A stretch of DNA of 32,000 nucleotides from assembly GCF_900105015.1 (NCBI RefSeq), contig NZ_FNLK01000012.1, positions 385,749 through 417,748 of the forward strand. Direction: 5' to 3'. The stretch's first letter is position 1. Each line of letters begins with the position of its first letter. The position numbers and the translations under genes are program-made. Below are positions 3,558 to 11,683 of the stretch, piece by piece. A model generated the notes under the pieces. It was not told the origin of the DNA, made no database searches, and saw nothing but the letters and a program-made list of their open reading frames with translations. Source of the DNA: Schaalia meyeri. GTDB lineage: Bacteria; Actinomycetota; Actinomycetes; Actinomycetales; Actinomycetaceae.

Positions 3558-6500
3558 GTGGGCGTGAACGCTCAGGGTGCTCCTGTTTTCACGATTGGCG
3601 GCGATCCGGGTGGGATTCGCACGCGCGCCCAGGTGATGGCGGATCGGGCGGCGGAGTTCGCTGACGTGTATTCGGGCCTCACATCCCTGAAGTCTGACGG
3701 GTGGAAGGGGCGCGCGGCGGATCGTTTCCGTGAAAAGTTTAAGGTTCAGACCCAGGGGTGGATGGACGCGCAGACCGCGTTTTCGAGTGCCTCTGCGGCT
3801 TACCTGTCCTACGCCACCACGTTGGAGAACGCACAGAACCAGTTGCCCGGTATCCGGTCGCGGTGGGAGCAGGGCCGCGCCGCGGTCGAAGCGGCGCAGG
3901 CCAATCAGGACAGCGTTCGCAGCCAGGCCGCGTCCGCTGGCGTGCCCGCGGTGTTTGATTCTTCGTGTGACGAGGGGCCGGGCGAGGACGCCATGGCCGC
4001 AGCGCAGACGGATTTCAACACGCTGGTCGCCACTGTCAACGATGCGGGGAATCAACTGATCTCGGCGCTCAACGCGGGGATCGCGATGCTCCCCGAACGC
4101 ACATGGTGGGACGCTACCTGCCGCACGGTCGGCTCTGTGCTGGTTGGCTTCGTGGAAGCCGTCGCTGACTTGTTGAAGCTGGCATGCAAGCTTGGCGGTT
4201 TCGATACCGTATTTGATTTTGGGCGCATGCTGATGGGGGACATGTCTTGGGATGAGTACATGGCTAAGCACGCGTATCTTCCCACCGAAACCGTCACAGG
4301 TTTGGCCAAAGCGTTATGGCAGGACCCCATTGGTTTCATGAAGGGGCTTGGTAAGGCAGTTTTAGACTGGGATGCGTGGGCCGATGACCCTGGTCGAGCG
4401 ATCGGACACCTGCTCCCCGACGTGATCATCGCGGTAGCAACGGCAGGTACAGGCACAGGGGCATCCGCGGGCGAGAAAGCCGCATCAGGAGCGGCCCGCG
4501 CGGCTCGCGCGGCCCGCATCGGCCGCGAGGTTTTCAAAGCGATCCTGCCGGTCAACCCCGACGATATTCGCGCGGTATCTAAACTCGGTAAAAACCTGGT
4601 CGAAAAGCTCTCGAACCGCGGCATCAACACCACGGGCAGCGTCGCGCAGCTATGCAACGATGCAAAGAAGATGACGAGCGCCTTGAACATAGACCACGCG
4701 GCGGTCGGGACAAACAAGTTCGCGGGGGCATCCAACCTCACCGGGGACGCATCCCACGCTGGCCGGGGGGCTGACAATCTCGCGGGAGCCTACAACCTTG
4801 CGGGAGACACTTCACACGCAGGCCGGGGCACCAACAACCTCGCCAGTGCCTCCAACCTCGTCGGGGATACCACCCACGGTTCGAGCAACCTCTCCGGGGC
4901 CTCCAACCTCACCGGGGACGCCGCTCACGCAGGCAGGGGCACCAATGGCTTTAATGGGTCCTCCAACCTCGTCGGGGATGTCGCTCACGCTGGCCGGGGG
5001 ACTAGTGGTTCTTCGGGTGTCGCCGACACGGCCACGATGGCCGAGGCGTCGCGTGGTTCGCACGCGAATGGTTACGCTCATGCGCAAGTCGGCGGCGGCT
5101 CCTACGGTGGTGATACCGGCGTTCACGGTGCTTCATCCACCCACGCGCAGGGAGCCCACCACCCCGATGGCGGGATGCCCGCGAGGGATGTGCACGCCGG
5201 ATCACGCTCAGACTCCGCCGCCGGTTACAGCGACTCCCACCCGACGGCTTCCCACGACATCCAGAGTGCCCCCCGGGGTGCCTCCCACGACCCGTCCCAG
5301 GGCGGCTCCCGGGGTGCCTCCCGTGATGTGTCCAGCTCGGGCGGTCACGGCAATCAGCCGCAGAACTCCCACGCCGCACAGGGCGGGAACGCCTCTGGCG
5401 CAGAGCGGGGCTCGTCATCGAATGGTTCGTCTTCGAGTCAAGGACACCACGGATCCGGTCAGGGTACCCAGGGCGGCCCACAGCCCACCAACCCCGCAGC
5501 CCCCAAGCACCCCACAGGTGGGGACGCCGCTGCCCCGCAGCGCTCCCAGGCTGCGGTGAGCGGCGAGGCCCCGCGCGGCAGCGAGGCGGCCACGCCCAGC
5601 CAGGCCTCGCCCAAGCCCGCTGCAAAAACTCACGCGCCCGACGCTGACGCTCCACACGCTAAGGGGGACGCGTCCAAGCCTGCCCCCCAGGCGGAGCCAT
5701 CCAAGCCCGCACCCGACACCGACCGTGCTCACGCCAAGACCCACGAGCCCAGGTCCGCGCATCCCACCCAGGACTCCCCCACCAAGACCCGCGAGCCTGC
5801 GGGAAAGGGCGAGGTGAATGAAACACCCGTCGCGGCCGACAAGCCGACGACGGAGCACCACGCCGGAAACAAGCCTGGCTCGCACGCGGGCGAGAAGCGC
5901 TCGGGGCACGCAGCCGACACGGACAATAAAAACGCAAACAACTCGGCACACAAGCAAGAACCCGAGACCAACTCCGAGGCCAACCCTGGCGAACAAGCGC
6001 ACGAGGACGCCGCGAAGTCCAACAACACCAAGCAGACCACGCGCGACGACCCGACAGCTGACAAGCACGCCCCCAACGAGAAGGCAGAGGACCCCGCAGA
6101 CACCAAGACCCACGGCGATAAGGACGAGACAAGCACGCCCCCGGCGAAGGACAACGCGCACGATGCCAGGTCCGAGGCGGATAGCAGGCCCACCAAGAGC
6201 AGTGAGCCCGAGCCTGCGGAAAAGGGCGAGGTGAATGAAACACCCGCCACGGCCGACAAGCCGACAGACAAGACCCCCGCTGAGAACACCACGGCCGATA
6301 GGACAGACAAACACGCTTCCACCAGGCAGGCTAACGACGCAGCGGACGCGAAGCAACACGCCGACAAGGACGAGAAAACCAAGCCCGCCACGAAAGACAA
6401 CACGCACGAGGCATCGCCCGAAGCGGACAGCAAGCGTGCAGACGACTCGGCACACAAGCAAGAACCCGAGACCAACTCCGAGGCCAACCCTGGCGAACAA

Positions 6501-8039
6501 GCGCACGAGGACGCCGCGAAGTCCAACAACACCAAGCAGACCACGCGCGACGACCCGACAGCTGACAAGCACGCCCCCAACGAGAAGGGCGAAGAACCCG
6601 CAGACACCAAGACCCACGGCGATAAGGATGAGGCAGACAAGCAAGCCTCAGAAGATGGCACGCTCGACAAGAAGGATGCGGACACCACACGCCACGACGG
6701 CGATAACCTCGCCAAGGATCACGGCAGCGATCCCGACAAGGACAGCAGCCACCCCAAGGAAACCAACGACAAGTCCAACCGCCCCAACGATGGCGACACC
6801 TCGCAACCCGATGGCAAGGATCATCCGAAGACCAAGGAAACCCAGAAGGACAACTCCGCAACCAACACCAAGGACACTGACAACTCGAAGCACTCCAAGG
6901 AAGAGAACACACCCAAGCACGACAAGGATGCAGACCAACAGAAGGGTACCGACTCAACAGCAGACAAGCACGCCCGCAACGGACGGTCCGACGACGCCGC
7001 GGATCCAAAGCCACACCGTGACAAGGAAAAGGAAGAGGCAGGTTCATCTACCAAAGACCCCGACAGCGAGCATCCCGATGATTCTTCTCGAAAGAACAGC
7101 GCGTCCGAGTCCGCTGACGGCGACTCCAGCGATTCATCGCGCGATGAGCGCGGCACGGAGCACGGAGATCGTGACGCCGACGGCGATTCGGGCGAGCACG
7201 AAAGCTCCACGAGTGAAGGAGGCCAAGAGAGAAAGGAGTACGAGGATCTGCACGATCACTCGCACGATGGCCAGGCAGATCCCTCCTACGACCCCAGCGC
7301 TGATCCTCACACCAACTATGACGCGGATTACGACACCCCACCAGACCCATCCGTCGACCAGACCATCGGCTTCCCCGAGGGAGTCGACCCGTACACCACG
7401 CCACCCCGGACGCGCCGCCAGCTTCAGGAGGCACTGGAAGCCTGGCCAAACTACAGAAGAAAAGATCTCCCTCCAGACGCAAAGGACTGGCACACGGGCA
7501 GGTTCGGCTTCGACGACATGGTCAATCCCGAGCGCGCCCTGGGCTTCAATCCCGACGGATCTCCACGATCAATGAAGGACTTCATGGACACCTTCTTCGA
7601 CGAGAAGAAAGGCACTATGTGGCCATCCGATGTCCCCGGACAACGAAAGAGCGGCGCGCTCCTCAATGAGGACTACCATGAGTACGCCTCCATTCAACCT
7701 TTCATTGACGAGCACGGATCAGACCTGTGTCGAATCGGAGATCCCGAAGGTAAGTTCGCGGCCGCAATGCACAAGGACGGCTCCGTCCCATCGTTTGGCG
7801 AACGAGGATTGTTCCAGCCCTTCTCCCTGGGCGCACCGGATATGCGCGCACGCCTGACCGGATACCTTCCCGAGGGACACACCGTCAAATACGGCCAGGT
7901 CGCCCCCGCATTTGGCCAACCCGGAGGAGCAATACAGCTGCAGATTTGGGGACCCGAGGAAACAACAGGTAAAATGATAGAATTACCGTTAGAAACATGG
8001 AAGAAACGAGGAATCATTGAGTATGTCCAACACGATTAG
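3558..8039 (+). CDS. T7SS-type polymorphic toxin: WXG-like N-terminal secretion domain, hydrophobic/helical region, ~800-aa disordered linker and C-terminal TNT NAD+ glycohydrolase domain
   Basis: 1493-aa ORF. The N-terminus (GGDPGGIRTRA…DGWKGRAADRFREKF…YATTLENAQ) resembles the helical-hairpin secretion domain of actinobacterial polymorphic toxins. The C-terminus (LCRIGDPEGKF…FGERGL…VAPAFGQPGGAIQLQIW) carries the TNT signature FGQPGG.Q. Confidence 0.9.
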   Translation: MGVNAQGAPVFTIGGDPGGIRTRAQVMADRAAEFADVYSGLTSLKSDGWKGRAADRFREKFKVQTQGWMDAQTAFSSASAAYLSYATTLENAQNQLPGIRSRWEQGRAAVEAAQANQDSVRSQAASAGVPAVFDSSCDEGPGEDAMAAAQTDFNTLVATVNDAGNQLISALNAGIAMLPERTWWDATCRTVGSVLVGFVEAVADLLKLACKLGGFDTVFDFGRMLMGDMSWDEYMAKHAYLPTETVTGLAKALWQDPIGFMKGLGKAVLDWDAWADDPGRAIGHLLPDVIIAVATAGTGTGASAGEKAASGAARAARAARIGREVFKAILPVNPDDIRAVSKLGKNLVEKLSNRGINTTGSVAQLCNDAKKMTSALNIDHAAVGTNKFAGASNLTGDASHAGRGADNLAGAYNLAGDTSHAGRGTNNLASASNLVGDTTHGSSNLSGASNLTGDAAHAGRGTNGFNGSSNLVGDVAHAGRGTSGSSGVADTATMAEASRGSHANGYAHAQVGGGSYGGDTGVHGASSTHAQGAHHPDGGMPARDVHAGSRSDSAAGYSDSHPTASHDIQSAPRGASHDPSQGGSRGASRDVSSSGGHGNQPQNSHAAQGGNASGAERGSSSNGSSSSQGHHGSGQGTQGGPQPTNPAAPKHPTGGDAAAPQRSQAAVSGEAPRGSEAATPSQASPKPAAKTHAPDADAPHAKGDASKPAPQAEPSKPAPDTDRAHAKTHEPRSAHPTQDSPTKTREPAGKGEVNETPVAADKPTTEHHAGNKPGSHAGEKRSGHAADTDNKNANNSAHKQEPETNSEANPGEQAHEDAAKSNNTKQTTRDDPTADKHAPNEKAEDPADTKTHGDKDETSTPPAKDNAHDARSEADSRPTKSSEPEPAEKGEVNETPATADKPTDKTPAENTTADRTDKHASTRQANDAADAKQHADKDEKTKPATKDNTHEASPEADSKRADDSAHKQEPETNSEANPGEQAHEDAAKSNNTKQTTRDDPTADKHAPNEKGEEPADTKTHGDKDEADKQASEDGTLDKKDADTTRHDGDNLAKDHGSDPDKDSSHPKETNDKSNRPNDGDTSQPDGKDHPKTKETQKDNSATNTKDTDNSKHSKEENTPKHDKDADQQKGTDSTADKHARNGRSDDAADPKPHRDKEKEEAGSSTKDPDSEHPDDSSRKNSASESADGDSSDSSRDERGTEHGDRDADGDSGEHESSTSEGGQERKEYEDLHDHSHDGQADPSYDPSADPHTNYDADYDTPPDPSVDQTIGFPEGVDPYTTPPRTRRQLQEALEAWPNYRRKDLPPDAKDWHTGRFGFDDMVNPERALGFNPDGSPRSMKDFMDTFFDEKKGTMWPSDVPGQRKSGALLNEDYHEYASIQPFIDEHGSDLCRIGDPEGKFAAAMHKDGSVPSFGERGLFQPFSLGAPDMRARLTGYLPEGHTVKYGQVAPAFGQPGGAIQLQIWGPEETTGKMIELPLETWKKRGIIEYVQHD
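4713..5015 (+). repeat. Five tandem ~20-aa (≈60-nt) coding repeats, consensus NL.GASNL.GD.SHAGRGT.
   Basis: Read from the translation: ASNLTGDASHAGRGADNLAGAYNLAGDTSHAGRGTNNLASASNLVGDTTHGSSNLSGASNLTGDAAHAGRGTNGFNGSSNLVGDVAHAGRGTS. Confidence 0.8.
5941..6126 (+). repeat. Copy 1 of a ~186-bp near-identical in-frame direct repeat inside the toxin linker
   Basis: Encodes NSAHKQEPETNSEANPGEQAHEDAAKSNNTKQTTRDDPTADKHAPNEK.EDPADTKTHGDKDE. The second copy lies 504 nt downstream. Confidence 0.85.
6445..6630 (+). repeat. Copy 2 of the ~186-bp linker repeat
   Basis: Same sequence as 5941-6126 with a few substitutions. A second repeated motif, GEVNETP..ADKPT, occurs at 5811 and 6228 (offset 417 nt). Confidence 0.85.
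7724..8036 (+). other. TNT (NADase) catalytic core of the large toxin
   Basis: DLCRIGDPEGKFAAAMHKDGSVPSFGERGLFQPFSLGAPDMRARL…KYGQVAPAFGQPGGAIQLQIWG. The pattern matches the TNT family known from M. tuberculosis CpnT. Confidence 0.8.
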
Positions 8040-9279: not shown

Positions 9280-9612
9280 TTGAGACTTAGTATTCCCTCC
9301 GGCCCTTCAACTTTCTGCACACGCAGCAGTAAGGCTCCTTCCTCGTCGGCGCAGCCCGTTGCCTGTTACACCGCAGATGACACACCCGACAAGAAGGAAG
9401 CGAACGCCACCCGCCACGACGGTGATAACCACGCCAAGGAGCACGGCAGCAACCCCGACAAGGACAGCGACCGCCCCAAGGACACCGACGGCGACGGCAA
9501 CTCCGACAAGGATTCGGTCGAACGTAAGGATGCTGACCCCAAGGCGGAGGACTACTCCGCCAATGGCAAGGCCGATGACGCCGACGCGCACAAGACCACC
9601 GAAGACGCCCCG
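9280..9612 (+). pseudogene. Linker-like 5' portion of an orphan toxin cassette (frame 1), separated from the ART domain by a 1-nt frameshift
   Basis: Encodes …DDTPDKKEANATRHDGDNHAKEHGSNPDKDSDRPKD…. Nucleotides 9388-9482 match toxin linker 6665-6759 at 83/95 positions by hand alignment. The frame then shifts at the C4 run at 9608-9611. Confidence 0.65.
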
Positions 9613-9821
9613 AGGCCAAGGCCGACGACGCCGATACTAAGTCCGCTGCTTCAGACGGACATGGTTCGGGCGATGGCCACGGTGATGGGGAGCGCCCCCT
9701 CACCAAGGAGGAAATTGAAGCGCTCCCGCAAGCTCCTGGGCGCAGAGCGAGCGCGGAAGAGCTCGACGCGTGGCTGGACGCATGCATCGAGCAGAATCCG
9801 GATCTGACGCGTCAAGAGCTA

Positions 9822-10286
9822 ATGGCTGCCTACGACTACTCAGGTCCGCAATATAAGGAGATCAACGGCTGGCTTCGTGACCCATCAATGGCTGTCTCGG
9901 CCGATATCCCCGAGACAGTTGAGACCCTCAATAAATTCCTCGACAGGTTGCCACCACATAACGGCAGAGTATACCGAGGAACGAAGGTGCCTGGACACAT
10001 TCTCGACGAGGCACTCCGTACCGGTGTCTACCGCGACCCTGCATTCTTCTCAAGCAGCACAAAGCCCGGCGTTGCAGAGAAGTTCATGAATTCAGGCGCA
10101 CTCGACCCCGGAGACAGACGAGTCCTGTTCGAGATTGAAAGCGCTTCGGGTTCAAACATCCGCCCAATGTCTATGTTTGCCACACAAGACGAAATCCTTT
10201 TTAAATCCGGACTTGAGTTTAAGATTGAAAAATGGACGGAACATGCAGACGGAAGTTACACCATCAAACTAAGGCAGAGAGAGTAG
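9822..10286 (+). CDS. ADP-ribosyltransferase toxin domain (C3/VIP2-like R-S-E ART), orphan C-terminal module
   Basis: Motifs seen: YDYSGPQYKEINGWLR, RVYRGT (Arg), FFSSST (S-x-S) and ATQDEILFKSG (Q-x-E). The frame is open upstream to 9579, but the first start codon is ATG 9822. Confidence 0.8.
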   Translation: MAAYDYSGPQYKEINGWLRDPSMAVSADIPETVETLNKFLDRLPPHNGRVYRGTKVPGHILDEALRTGVYRDPAFFSSSTKPGVAEKFMNSGALDPGDRRVLFEIESASGSNIRPMSMFATQDEILFKSGLEFKIEKWTEHADGSYTIKLRQRE

Positions 10287-10295
10287 GATGCAGTT

Positions 10296-11183
10296 ATGCC
10301 CATCGCTGTGAATGGAAACGTTAACAGAGCGCAGTTGTGGCTTGCCGACCACCACTGGTGGGATTACCCAGAGATCTGGAAGCTCCCTAAGCGGCCCGAG
10401 GACGGCCAGCTCGACTGGGAGCGCCTCTTTCCACACCAGCGTGACGTCATCCGCCGTTTCTCAGCCACGCTCCGCACATTATCGGGCTTACCTGCGGTGT
10501 TGCCTTCGATCCCCTACCAGCCTTTCGGGACCCCGAGCCCGCAGGGCTGGGTCATGCCTATCAGATCCGGCACACGCGGTGAGCTTCGTTACGGCGAGTG
10601 CAGCTTTGAGGGCTCTATTCTCTCCCATCACCCCATCCGAGGGACCGACACGTTCGCGCTCCTCATCTATCCAGGCCGGATCAATCCCTGGTTTGTCATC
10701 CGCGCAGACGGACACCCCTGGCACACCAATCCATGGGCAAACAACACGCGAGTGGGGTCCATCTGGGTGCGCACTCTTGCCTGGCAGCACACCTCTCATC
10801 AGATTCTGCCATTCACCGAGGTAGCCGTTCCGCCGCGGACTGTGACTACGCAGCTGCGCACGATCTACATGGAGCGGAACCCCGACGATCCTGACCTGTA
10901 CGGCTCGCTCACAGAGCTACCGACACCGGTGGACGAACGCATCGAGGTTCGAGATGTCCCCGTGTGGTGGAAAGAACCAGAGTACCTCCTGTGGAAGCGC
11001 TTCCTTCAGCCCGAACCGGGAAATCCGGACTCCTATTGGAACGGTCCCAACACTCTCGACGAGCGCACCGCTTACGAGTGCATCATCCAATACGCAGGCC
11101 TGCTCCGCGATTGGACATCGCCTTACGTCCCCTCGCCCGACTTCATTGAACGCTTTGACTGGAAACCACGGGAGGAATCATGA
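10296..11183 (+). CDS. Hypothetical Trp-rich 295-aa protein, candidate immunity protein for the ART module
   Basis: ATG lies 6 nt after AGGA and 9 nt after the ART stop. No recognisable family. Function is inferred from position only. Confidence 0.6.
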   Translation: MPIAVNGNVNRAQLWLADHHWWDYPEIWKLPKRPEDGQLDWERLFPHQRDVIRRFSATLRTLSGLPAVLPSIPYQPFGTPSPQGWVMPIRSGTRGELRYGECSFEGSILSHHPIRGTDTFALLIYPGRINPWFVIRADGHPWHTNPWANNTRVGSIWVRTLAWQHTSHQILPFTEVAVPPRTVTTQLRTIYMERNPDDPDLYGSLTELPTPVDERIEVRDVPVWWKEPEYLLWKRFLQPEPGNPDSYWNGPNTLDERTAYECIIQYAGLLRDWTSPYVPSPDFIERFDWKPREES

Positions 11184-11683
11184 ACGAAGATAGCATCAAG
11201 AGTTTTTTAGCTCTTCTCGAGTCACTGCCGCCGACCCCCTCGGTTACCTTCCGCGGATATGTCGACACTTCCATCACGGAGCCGCGTGCGATCTCATCTC
11301 CCATTCTCACGGCAACATCGCATAGCATTTCCATTGCGACAAACAACCTGGAGATTCCGCAGATCGCTATTTTTATCGGCCAGAATGGACGAGACCTAAG
11401 CAACCTCATGATGGGTGCTCCCTCTTTCAATCTCGAAGAGGTCACCTACATGCCCGGATCCTACTTCTACCAGCATCCAGCACAGGAGTTCCTCGGAGTG
11501 ACAATCCAGCTTTACGAGGAAATGCGCCTGACCGAAGGAGGAAAGAGCCTCACCCCTACCCGTGTACTCGACTCCTGGACACCCATTCTCATTGAGTTTG
11601 AGCCTGCGCTCCGCGCTGCTCGTAGCCAGCGCGTCGAACTACCCGAAGGGGCATCAGAACGTTTTCTCATTCCCGTGGGGTAA
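11180..11683 (+). CDS. 167-aa protein with a divergent ART-like fold signature (possible second, N-terminally short ART module)
   Basis: ATGA overlap with the upstream stop, and a GGAGGA RBS. LESLPPTPSVTFRGY aligns with LDRLPPHNGRVYRGT of the neighbouring ART, ILTATSHS with FFSSSTK, and NLEEVTYMPGS with TQDEILFKSG. Confidence 0.55.
   Translation: MNEDSIKSFLALLESLPPTPSVTFRGYVDTSITEPRAISSPILTATSHSISIATNNLEIPQIAIFIGQNGRDLSNLMMGAPSFNLEEVTYMPGSYFYQHPAQEFLGVTIQLYEEMRLTEGGKSLTPTRVLDSWTPILIEFEPALRAARSQRVELPEGASERFLIPVG

Follow-up and report, generated by a model that had tools for sequence, protein, structure and literature searches.

How does a cell protect itself against an orphan ADP-ribosyltransferase (ART) toxin domain when the genes that follow this domain resemble no immunity gene? 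The question is raised by a stretch of 32,000 nucleotides from Schaalia meyeri (contig NZ_FNLK01000012.1, positions 385,749 to 417,748; hereafter the window), in which a toxin tip of the R-S-E ART class is followed by two open reading frames (ORFs), encoding proteins of 295 and 167 aa. Immunity proteins of interbacterial toxins are generally viewed as small binding proteins with no kinship to the toxin and, in rare cases, as enzymes of repair. Profile comparisons indicate that the 167-aa protein is a divergent homologue of the R-S-E ADP-ribosyltransferases themselves, and we read it as a degenerate, catalytically decayed ART (pseudo-ART). With the 295-aa protein as its physical partner, this pseudo-ART would make up a two-part immunity system, a reading to which we give somewhat better than even chances on the strength of sequence comparisons. 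The features concerned are the following:

9579 to 10286, + strand: orphan Tre1-like R-S-E ADP-ribosyltransferase toxin tip (open frame from 9579)
10284 to 10298, + strand: ART/295-aa junction, with a TAG stop, AGGA at 10285-10288 and ATG at 10296, read from the sequence
10296 to 11183, + strand: ORF for a Trp-rich protein of 295 aa, from a rare family that has no annotation, the proposed pseudo-ART partner
11170 to 11183, + strand: 295/167 coupling junction, with a Shine-Dalgarno-like GGGAGGA at 11170-11176 followed by ATGA, read from the sequence
11180 to 11683, + strand: ORF for the 167-aa putative pseudo-ART, with ART homology by profile, the proposed immunity protein

An earlier note on this DNA, made without database searches, had placed the two ORFs here with an ATGA overlap, and this arrangement was confirmed from the sequence: the TGA of the 295-aa ORF (11181-11183) overlaps the ATG of the 167-aa ORF (11180-11182). 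The same four-base overlap was found in five other loci (L009, L010, L012, L013, and L079). The 295-aa ORF begins 9 bases past the ART stop, and the spacing after the ART remnant of L009 is equal. Dozens of full-length homologues were found for each of the two proteins. The ratio of non-synonymous to synonymous substitution rates (dN/dS) was compared between cassettes in which the neighbouring ART consists of only 44-70 residues: the 295 gene had values of 0.18-0.34 and the 167 gene values of 0.11-0.15. Since these values are low beside cut-down ARTs, both genes are kept for a function that is independent of an intact adjacent toxin. Within the same cassettes, the 295 gene evolved faster than the 167 gene (dN 0.11 vs 0.04). 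Both ORFs are genuine genes under purifying selection.

At the level of single sequences, no Pfam match was found for the 167-aa window protein, and a BLASTP comparison with the neighbouring ART gave an E value of 0.029. At the profile level, a 12-sequence alignment of the 167 family, drawn from four genera, was compared by hhalign with a 6-sequence alignment of cognate toxin ART domains. The probability reached 95.8 % (E = 7.5e-9, 95 columns), with the aligned columns running in order through LP..FRG, TATS, G.tGrD, and EEVTY.PG, and control comparisons against the 295 family yielded just 0.4 % and 0.1 %. The motif-by-motif likeness to the neighbouring ART, which the earlier note had drawn attention to, is far above chance in this comparison. 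When 177,635 PDB sequences were searched with the 167 profile, the matches included ExoT (7.3e-5), Tre1 (~7e-4), Vis, XopAI, and ExoS. In related loci, this profile matched the true upstream toxin domains (1e-4 to 1e-10) and, reciprocally, the hidden Markov model of the toxins matched the 167-like proteins (1e-2 to 1e-4). One distant member of the family scored 2.7e-4 with the Pfam ART model (20.8 bits, for a gathering cut-off of 22.3). Identity between the 167 family and the toxins ranged from 15 to 28 %, with no excess for the cognate toxin; because identity to the cognate toxin is not raised, the family is best seen as a single old offshoot of the toxin fold, and recurrent duplication of 167-like genes from their own toxins was ruled out on the same grounds.

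The state of the active site was examined in a joint alignment. The Y..N..LR helix, which precedes the LP..RG strand in the cognate toxins, was missing in all members of the 167 family, so that its absence from the window ORF, already remarked upon in the earlier note, was borne out. The strand-1 Arg of the FRG motif was kept in the window (R25) and was replaced by His (G593, G583, and Cryobacterium) or Lys (G119) in some members. In place of S-T-S, the window protein has A45-T46-S47, the first Ser being replaced by Ala in most members; in place of Q/E-x-E it has L85-E86-E87, the first Glu being lost in g1, the group of the window. The second, catalytic Glu was the sole catalytic residue that was invariant across the family. 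Distant members retained the full E-x-E, and Arg, S-T-S, and E-x-E are kept together in distant copies such as L079 (FRA, VSTSRS, and EQE). At the C-terminus, the family extends by about 45 further residues, which finish in C/S-x-R-F or P-G-K-F (S-x-R-F in the window copy).

The 167 family spans the Actinomycetota as a stand-alone protein of constant size; as it has neither a Pfam nor an NCBIfam model, its members are labelled hypothetical everywhere. A profile search retrieved 167-like proteins in Propionibacterium, Actinomyces ruminicola, Jiangella, Arsenicicoccus, and Cryobacterium, all of them hypothetical and with no Pfam domain. A scan of one genome per species, which used a subgroup alignment, gave 65 loci, 63 of which contained true 167-like genes, in Microbacterium, Nocardioides, Mycobacterium/Mycolicibacterium, Cellulomonas, Glycomyces, Actinotalea, and metagenome-assembled genomes (MAGs). 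By what lies upstream of the 167-like gene, these 63 loci, counted by reading the hit table, fell into the following classes:

ART directly upstream of the 167-like gene (<=100 bp): 9 loci
ART, a gap of ~270 bp with a small ORF, then the 167-like gene: 7 loci
ART, a gap of ~580 bp with a conserved mycobacterial 190-200-aa protein, then the 167-like gene: 11-12 loci
ART, then a 295-core gene and the 167-like gene: 7 loci
ART, then a 327-aa repeat protein and the 167-like gene: 1 locus
ART within 1.2 kb of the 167-like gene, all classes: 37/63 loci
No ART within 5 kb of the 167-like gene (orphans): ~26 loci

In L002-L005, full-length type VII secretion system (T7SS) toxins with an ART end were followed, after 81 bp and with nothing between, by a 167-aa gene whose product is 64 % identical to that of the window, while the ART ends share 38 % identity with the window's. 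Orphan 167-like genes adjoined Imm33 (L006-8 and L022), and Imm61 was found nearby in L041 and L002. Given this position downstream of ART toxins and the orphan copies beside Imm33 and Imm61, the 167 family behaves as an immunity gene. The slot between the toxin and the 167-like gene varied by lineage, being occupied by a 295-like gene, an ARH fusion (ARH, ADP-ribosylglycohydrolase), the mycobacterial family, the repeat protein, a small ORF, or nothing. The inactive ART mimic acting in immunity that the earlier note had considered is supported, as far as sequences can tell, by the degenerate active site together with this immunity position in many Actinomycetota.

Several occupants of this neighbourhood were distinctive. 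The mycobacterial 190-200-aa protein, found between the ART and the 167-like gene at L109:4419-4982, L116, L122, and eight more Mycobacterium/Mycolicibacterium loci, contains the motifs Y.RKWE.GGC.P.HSL and TYVGSWQWN.HGE and matched neither Pfam nor the 295 profile. The 327-aa slot protein of an Actinotalea MAG (L091:4009-4989) contains about 8 repeats of the type EWW.DG..HR.DGPA.E, with no Pfam match. A 346-aa protein of G095 (L078 / L032:916-1956), which may be a composite immunity protein, joins an unrelated N-terminal half to a C-terminal 167-like domain (SYRS, TCSA, and ALELVY) and directly follows a T7SS toxin whose end is not detectably ART. In Jiangella asiatica (L039:4725-6489), a 337-aa ART protein, an ORF of about 89 aa, and a 167-like gene lie between the rpsL-rpsG-fusA-tuf operon and rpoC/rpoB, which is an unusual site for a toxin module.

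The 295-aa protein contains 17 Trp (5.8 %) and 34 Pro. Its family is rare, with 18 clusters among 1.84 billion representatives, and the only convincing match to the core profile in 400 genomes of the class was in the window's own genome, the others being marginal. The earlier note had recognised no immunity hallmarks in this ORF, and none emerged here: searches of Pfam, NCBIfam, PADLOC, and PDB sequences, diverse profiles included, returned no relatives of known function, the best Pfam line being a match of one member to Sarcoglycan_2 (E = 0.035), which is not meaningful. The known T7SS helper families (Lap/Tap, DUF4176, and EsaE-like) in the Pfam and NCBIfam models gave no match either. The conserved core comprises about 130-160 residues (about residues 40-200), with the motifs RPEDGxLDW and WxxxRADGxPW, and includes a helix, the stretch P.VSRVK..D.PH...GW (in the window, PSIPYQPFGTPSPQGW), and a beta-rich segment that carries W...RADG.PW. 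The window protein's His pairs were not conserved in the family. A link to MORN/YwqK-like repeats, prompted by the RADGxPW motif, found no support.

The one constant feature of the 295 family was the company of a 167-like gene. The two genes adjoined one another, in either order, in at least five lineages (g1, g6, g13, Nocardioides with seven loci, and MAGs). In genus g6 the order was toxin, 167-like, 295-like, and in G103 it was toxin, a 265-aa 295-like, 167-like. Moreover, in two independent MAGs of uncultured Actinomycetota (L086:5474-6433 and L102:5479-6366), a degenerate second 167-like domain was fused in frame to the 295 core, giving a protein of about 319 aa. Each fusion gene is flanked by a normal 167-like gene on one side and by an ARH gene on the other, and the core of the second one (L102) contains a frameshift. 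The in-frame fusion speaks for two proteins that act in physical contact or whose functions are tightly linked. The two-component immunity system that the earlier note had also proposed is thereby rendered plausible by recurrent adjacency, coupling, and fusion, and it is compatible with the mimic, each allowing the other.

Stand-alone relatives of 291 aa were found in two loci (L011:8001-8876 and L035:8111-8983); they were 61 % identical, intact, and under selection (dN/dS ~0.2-0.3). The position of one such copy near SIR2, NrtR, and NadE had suggested a link of the 295 family to NAD (nicotinamide adenine dinucleotide) metabolism, which was ruled out: the 291-aa gene has been inserted between two genes, nadE and one for a lipoprotein, that lie 165 bp apart in the window's genome.

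ARH genes recurred in the related modules, whereas the window cassette itself has none. In Cryobacterium the order was toxin, a 563-aa ARH protein (PF03747, 1.4e-65), 167-like, Imm61; in G526 it was toxin, 167-like, ARH (1.3e-54); and in G497 and G593, ARH genes or remnants adjoined the 167-like genes. Five Nocardioides loci carried, in a row, toxin, 295 core, 167-like, and ARH, and both MAGs with the fusion carried ARH too. The 295-aa protein was considered as a substitute for ARH, as ARH genes occupy the same slots in Cryobacterium and G526; this was ruled out by the co-occurrence of the two in the five Nocardioides loci and two MAGs. No match to PF03747 was found among 9 diverse members of the 295 family even at E = 10, and the hhalign probability of the 295 family against the Cryobacterium ARH protein was 0.09 %. 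In G497 (L073:6692-7683), an ART remnant is followed by a tandem pair of 167-like genes that have diverged from each other, with a divergent ARH gene alongside.

The two genes would then be the protective half of an orphan cassette, set in a polymorphic-toxin locus of type VII (Eat/LXG-like). The 167-aa protein would act in the cytoplasm as the constant immunity factor for the Tre1-like ART clade; most likely, we infer, its retained ART cleft and invariant Glu serve to bind the toxin domain on entry, or else the site that the toxin recognises. The 295-aa protein would be a lineage-restricted partner, presumably made in fixed proportion through the ATGA coupling, which would associate physically with the pseudo-ART as the second subunit or the stabiliser of a neutralising complex. 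In other Actinomycetota, the module adds an ARH gene whose product would remove the modification, and occlusion and hydrolysis may be split over separate genes.

Several observations weigh against a pseudo-ART that neutralises its own toxin with the 295-aa protein as partner. The 167 family is better conserved than its toxins (64 % identity between the 167-aa proteins of the window and L002, vs 38 % for the ART ends), which is unusual for a co-evolving immunity protein, and the lineage-variable slot could hold the specific immunity protein instead. The invariant Glu, and the E-x-E of distant members, may indicate residual NAD binding or catalysis in the 167 family. The stand-alone 291-aa copies have no 167-like neighbour at all. 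Finally, the structure prediction and fold search that the earlier note had suggested went only part of the way. AlphaFold models of both proteins were built from shallow alignments of close relatives; that of the 167-aa protein was of low confidence (predicted local distance difference test score, pLDDT, 54; predicted template modelling score, pTM, 0.55), and that of the 295-aa protein was unusable (pLDDT 45), a Foldseek search with it being meaningless. With the weak 167-aa model, the top Foldseek ranks were ART-like (Tre1, XopAI, Vis, iota toxin, and C3), at E values of 0.09-0.3 and a TM-score of ~0.29.

As the 167 family outconserves the toxins and the toxin-adjacent slot varies, two related explanations stay alive. 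The roles may be reversed, the 295-aa protein being the specific toxin-binding immunity protein and the pseudo-ART a broad second layer on the side of the cell, for example a dominant-negative mimic that occupies the target site of the toxin. The position beside the toxin is indeed taken by unrelated lineage-specific genes, a pattern that specific immunity under rapid evolution would produce; the 295 gene evolves faster than the 167 gene; and the 167 family, conserved to a far greater degree than the toxins, keeps the invariant Glu of the ADP-ribosylating turn-turn (ARTT) region and has many orphans. However, many full-length ART toxins have a 167-like gene as their only downstream partner, where the 167-like protein must be enough by itself unless protection comes from another place; in g6 it is the 167-like gene that stands first and the 295-like gene that follows; and an abundant target would be costly to shield stoichiometrically. 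We consider such a reversal unlikely, though likelier than the other alternatives. Somewhat less likely again, the pseudo-ART would shield the toxin's target, or its target arginine, as a dominant-negative mimic with the 295-aa protein as co-factor, the toxin itself not being inhibited; target-side protection of this kind, broad across the Tre1-like clade, would explain both the strong conservation of the 167 family and its common orphans, mycobacteria included.

The remaining explanations assign one of the proteins to another trade. That the 295-aa protein helps the ART domain to fold, to stay stable, or to be exported, in a role comparable to that of EsaE, DUF4176 proteins, or TrxA for TreX, and travels with it in the cassette rather than being an immunity component, would suit its place directly after the toxin, the 9-bp spacing, and its restriction to some lineages, and T7SS toxin helpers and an ART toxin chaperone have been described. 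Yet the gene is intact and under purifying selection where the ART has been cut to 44-70 aa, stand-alone copies lie far from any toxin, the fusions are to a 167-like domain rather than to a toxin, and the known helper families are not matched, which makes this role improbable. We think it quite improbable that the 167-aa protein has enzymatic activity, as a small ART or another NAD-using enzyme, and protects by modifying the toxin or as one half of a reversible ADP-ribosylation pair with ARH, in place of binding: the catalytic Glu is invariant, the set of R, S-T-S, and E-x-E persists in distant members such as L079, and ARH genes are repeatedly adjacent, but the N-terminal helix is gone in all members, and Arg, first Ser, and first Glu have each given way to another residue in some lineage where selection persists, the window having A-T-S and L-E-E. 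The second orphan toxin fragment of the earlier note, with the 295-aa ORF as a chance or decaying frame, hardly merits belief. The cassette is an orphan, its ART is frameshifted from its linker, and GC-rich DNA yields many spurious frames; against this stand dozens of full-length homologues of constant size, dN/dS well below 1, conserved start sites and coupling, and a 167-aa protein that shares no more identity with its own toxin than with the others (15-28 %), and this claim was rejected.

Among the systems described so far, the pair Tre1-Tri1 of Serratia proteamaculans (6DRE/6DRH) is the closest, Tre1 being the nearest solved relative of the toxin clade studied here (6e-27 for the toxin-clade profile against 6dre/6drh). 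Ting and co-workers reportedly found in 2018 that Tri1 joins active-site occlusion with enzymatic removal of ADP-ribose. Tri1-like ARH genes are present in the related actinobacterial modules. In contrast to Tre1-Tri1, the constant partner here has, by sequence profile, an ART fold, the second gene has no recognised fold, and delivery is of type VII, not type VI. A precedent for a pseudo-ART as a binding module is XopAI of Xanthomonas (6K93/6KLY), which was among the matches of both the 167 profile and the 167-aa model; its ART-like domain is said in the structural paper to have lost the NAD-binding residues and to bind an arginine-containing peptide. However, XopAI, a type III effector that a plant pathogen secretes, is not an immunity protein and keeps the N-terminal part of the fold. 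In VIP2, iota Ia, and CDTa, enzymatic components of binary toxins with tandem ART folds, found among the fold and sequence matches, an inactive ART fold derived by duplication likewise accompanies an active ART; in those toxins the inactive copy forms an N-terminal adaptor domain within a single polypeptide and functions in delivery, whereas here it is a separate, putatively cytoplasmic protein in the immunity position.

More than one protective gene per toxin in the same locus has been described for two other systems: Tde5-Tdi5a/Tdi5b, in which two immunity proteins bind one toxin at different surfaces (PMC13392607), and YwqJ-YwqK-EndoV, in which a deaminase toxin is met by a binder and a separate repair gene (PMC13648612). 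Both differ in toxin chemistry (a DNase for Tde5, a deaminase for YwqJ), and, as described, they include neither an immunity protein derived from the toxin fold nor a counterpart of the 295 family. For Tox-ART-RSE, Imm41 and an ADP-ribosylglycohydrolase (Imm-ADP-RGHD) have been listed as immunity families (Zhang et al. 2012; PMC3482391). These occupy the same slot downstream of R-S-E ART toxins, but the window proteins match no Pfam immunity family, nor PF03747. Full-text literature searches turned up no account of the 295 family, nor of any immunity protein with an ART fold, which is not proof of novelty.

The cassette suggests a form of self-protection that has not been described for the class of ADP-ribosylating toxins. 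If the pseudo-ART reading is true, an immunity family would have arisen from the catalytic fold of the toxin itself, a new route of immunity evolution, and a natural pseudo-enzyme would be deployed against its active relative. The 167 family has been kept from oral Schaalia/Actinomyces to Nocardioides, Microbacterium, and Mycolicibacterium, with the 295 gene, ARH, and other middle-slot genes as optional add-ons, and the module would thus offer a simple system for studying how several protective layers share the work against one ADP-ribosylating toxin. The module also flags a set of type VII ART toxins of Actinomycetota.

The cassette lies in a type VII polymorphic-toxin locus, in which a 1493-aa toxin (3558-8039) with a TNT-like end is followed by immunity paralogues and orphan cassettes. 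The ATG-started ART ORF spans 9822-10286 (154 aa) and contains the motifs RVYRG, FFSSST, and QDE, with Pfam matches to ART (2e-10) and ADPrib_exo_Tox (3e-10). Upstream of its ATG, where the frame is open, pre-toxin linker sequence is encoded, and a frameshift separates the ART from its linker. A scan for promoters and terminators found nothing useful. The GC content was 51 % for the ART, 60 % for the 295-aa gene, and 54 % for the 167-aa gene, vs 63 % for the window, a reduction that is consistent with a horizontal origin of the cassette. Two ARH genes were found elsewhere in the same genome (G000:C4:265910-266824 and G000:C1:12195-13007), one of them lying within an open frame of 734 aa, some 120 kb away from the window.

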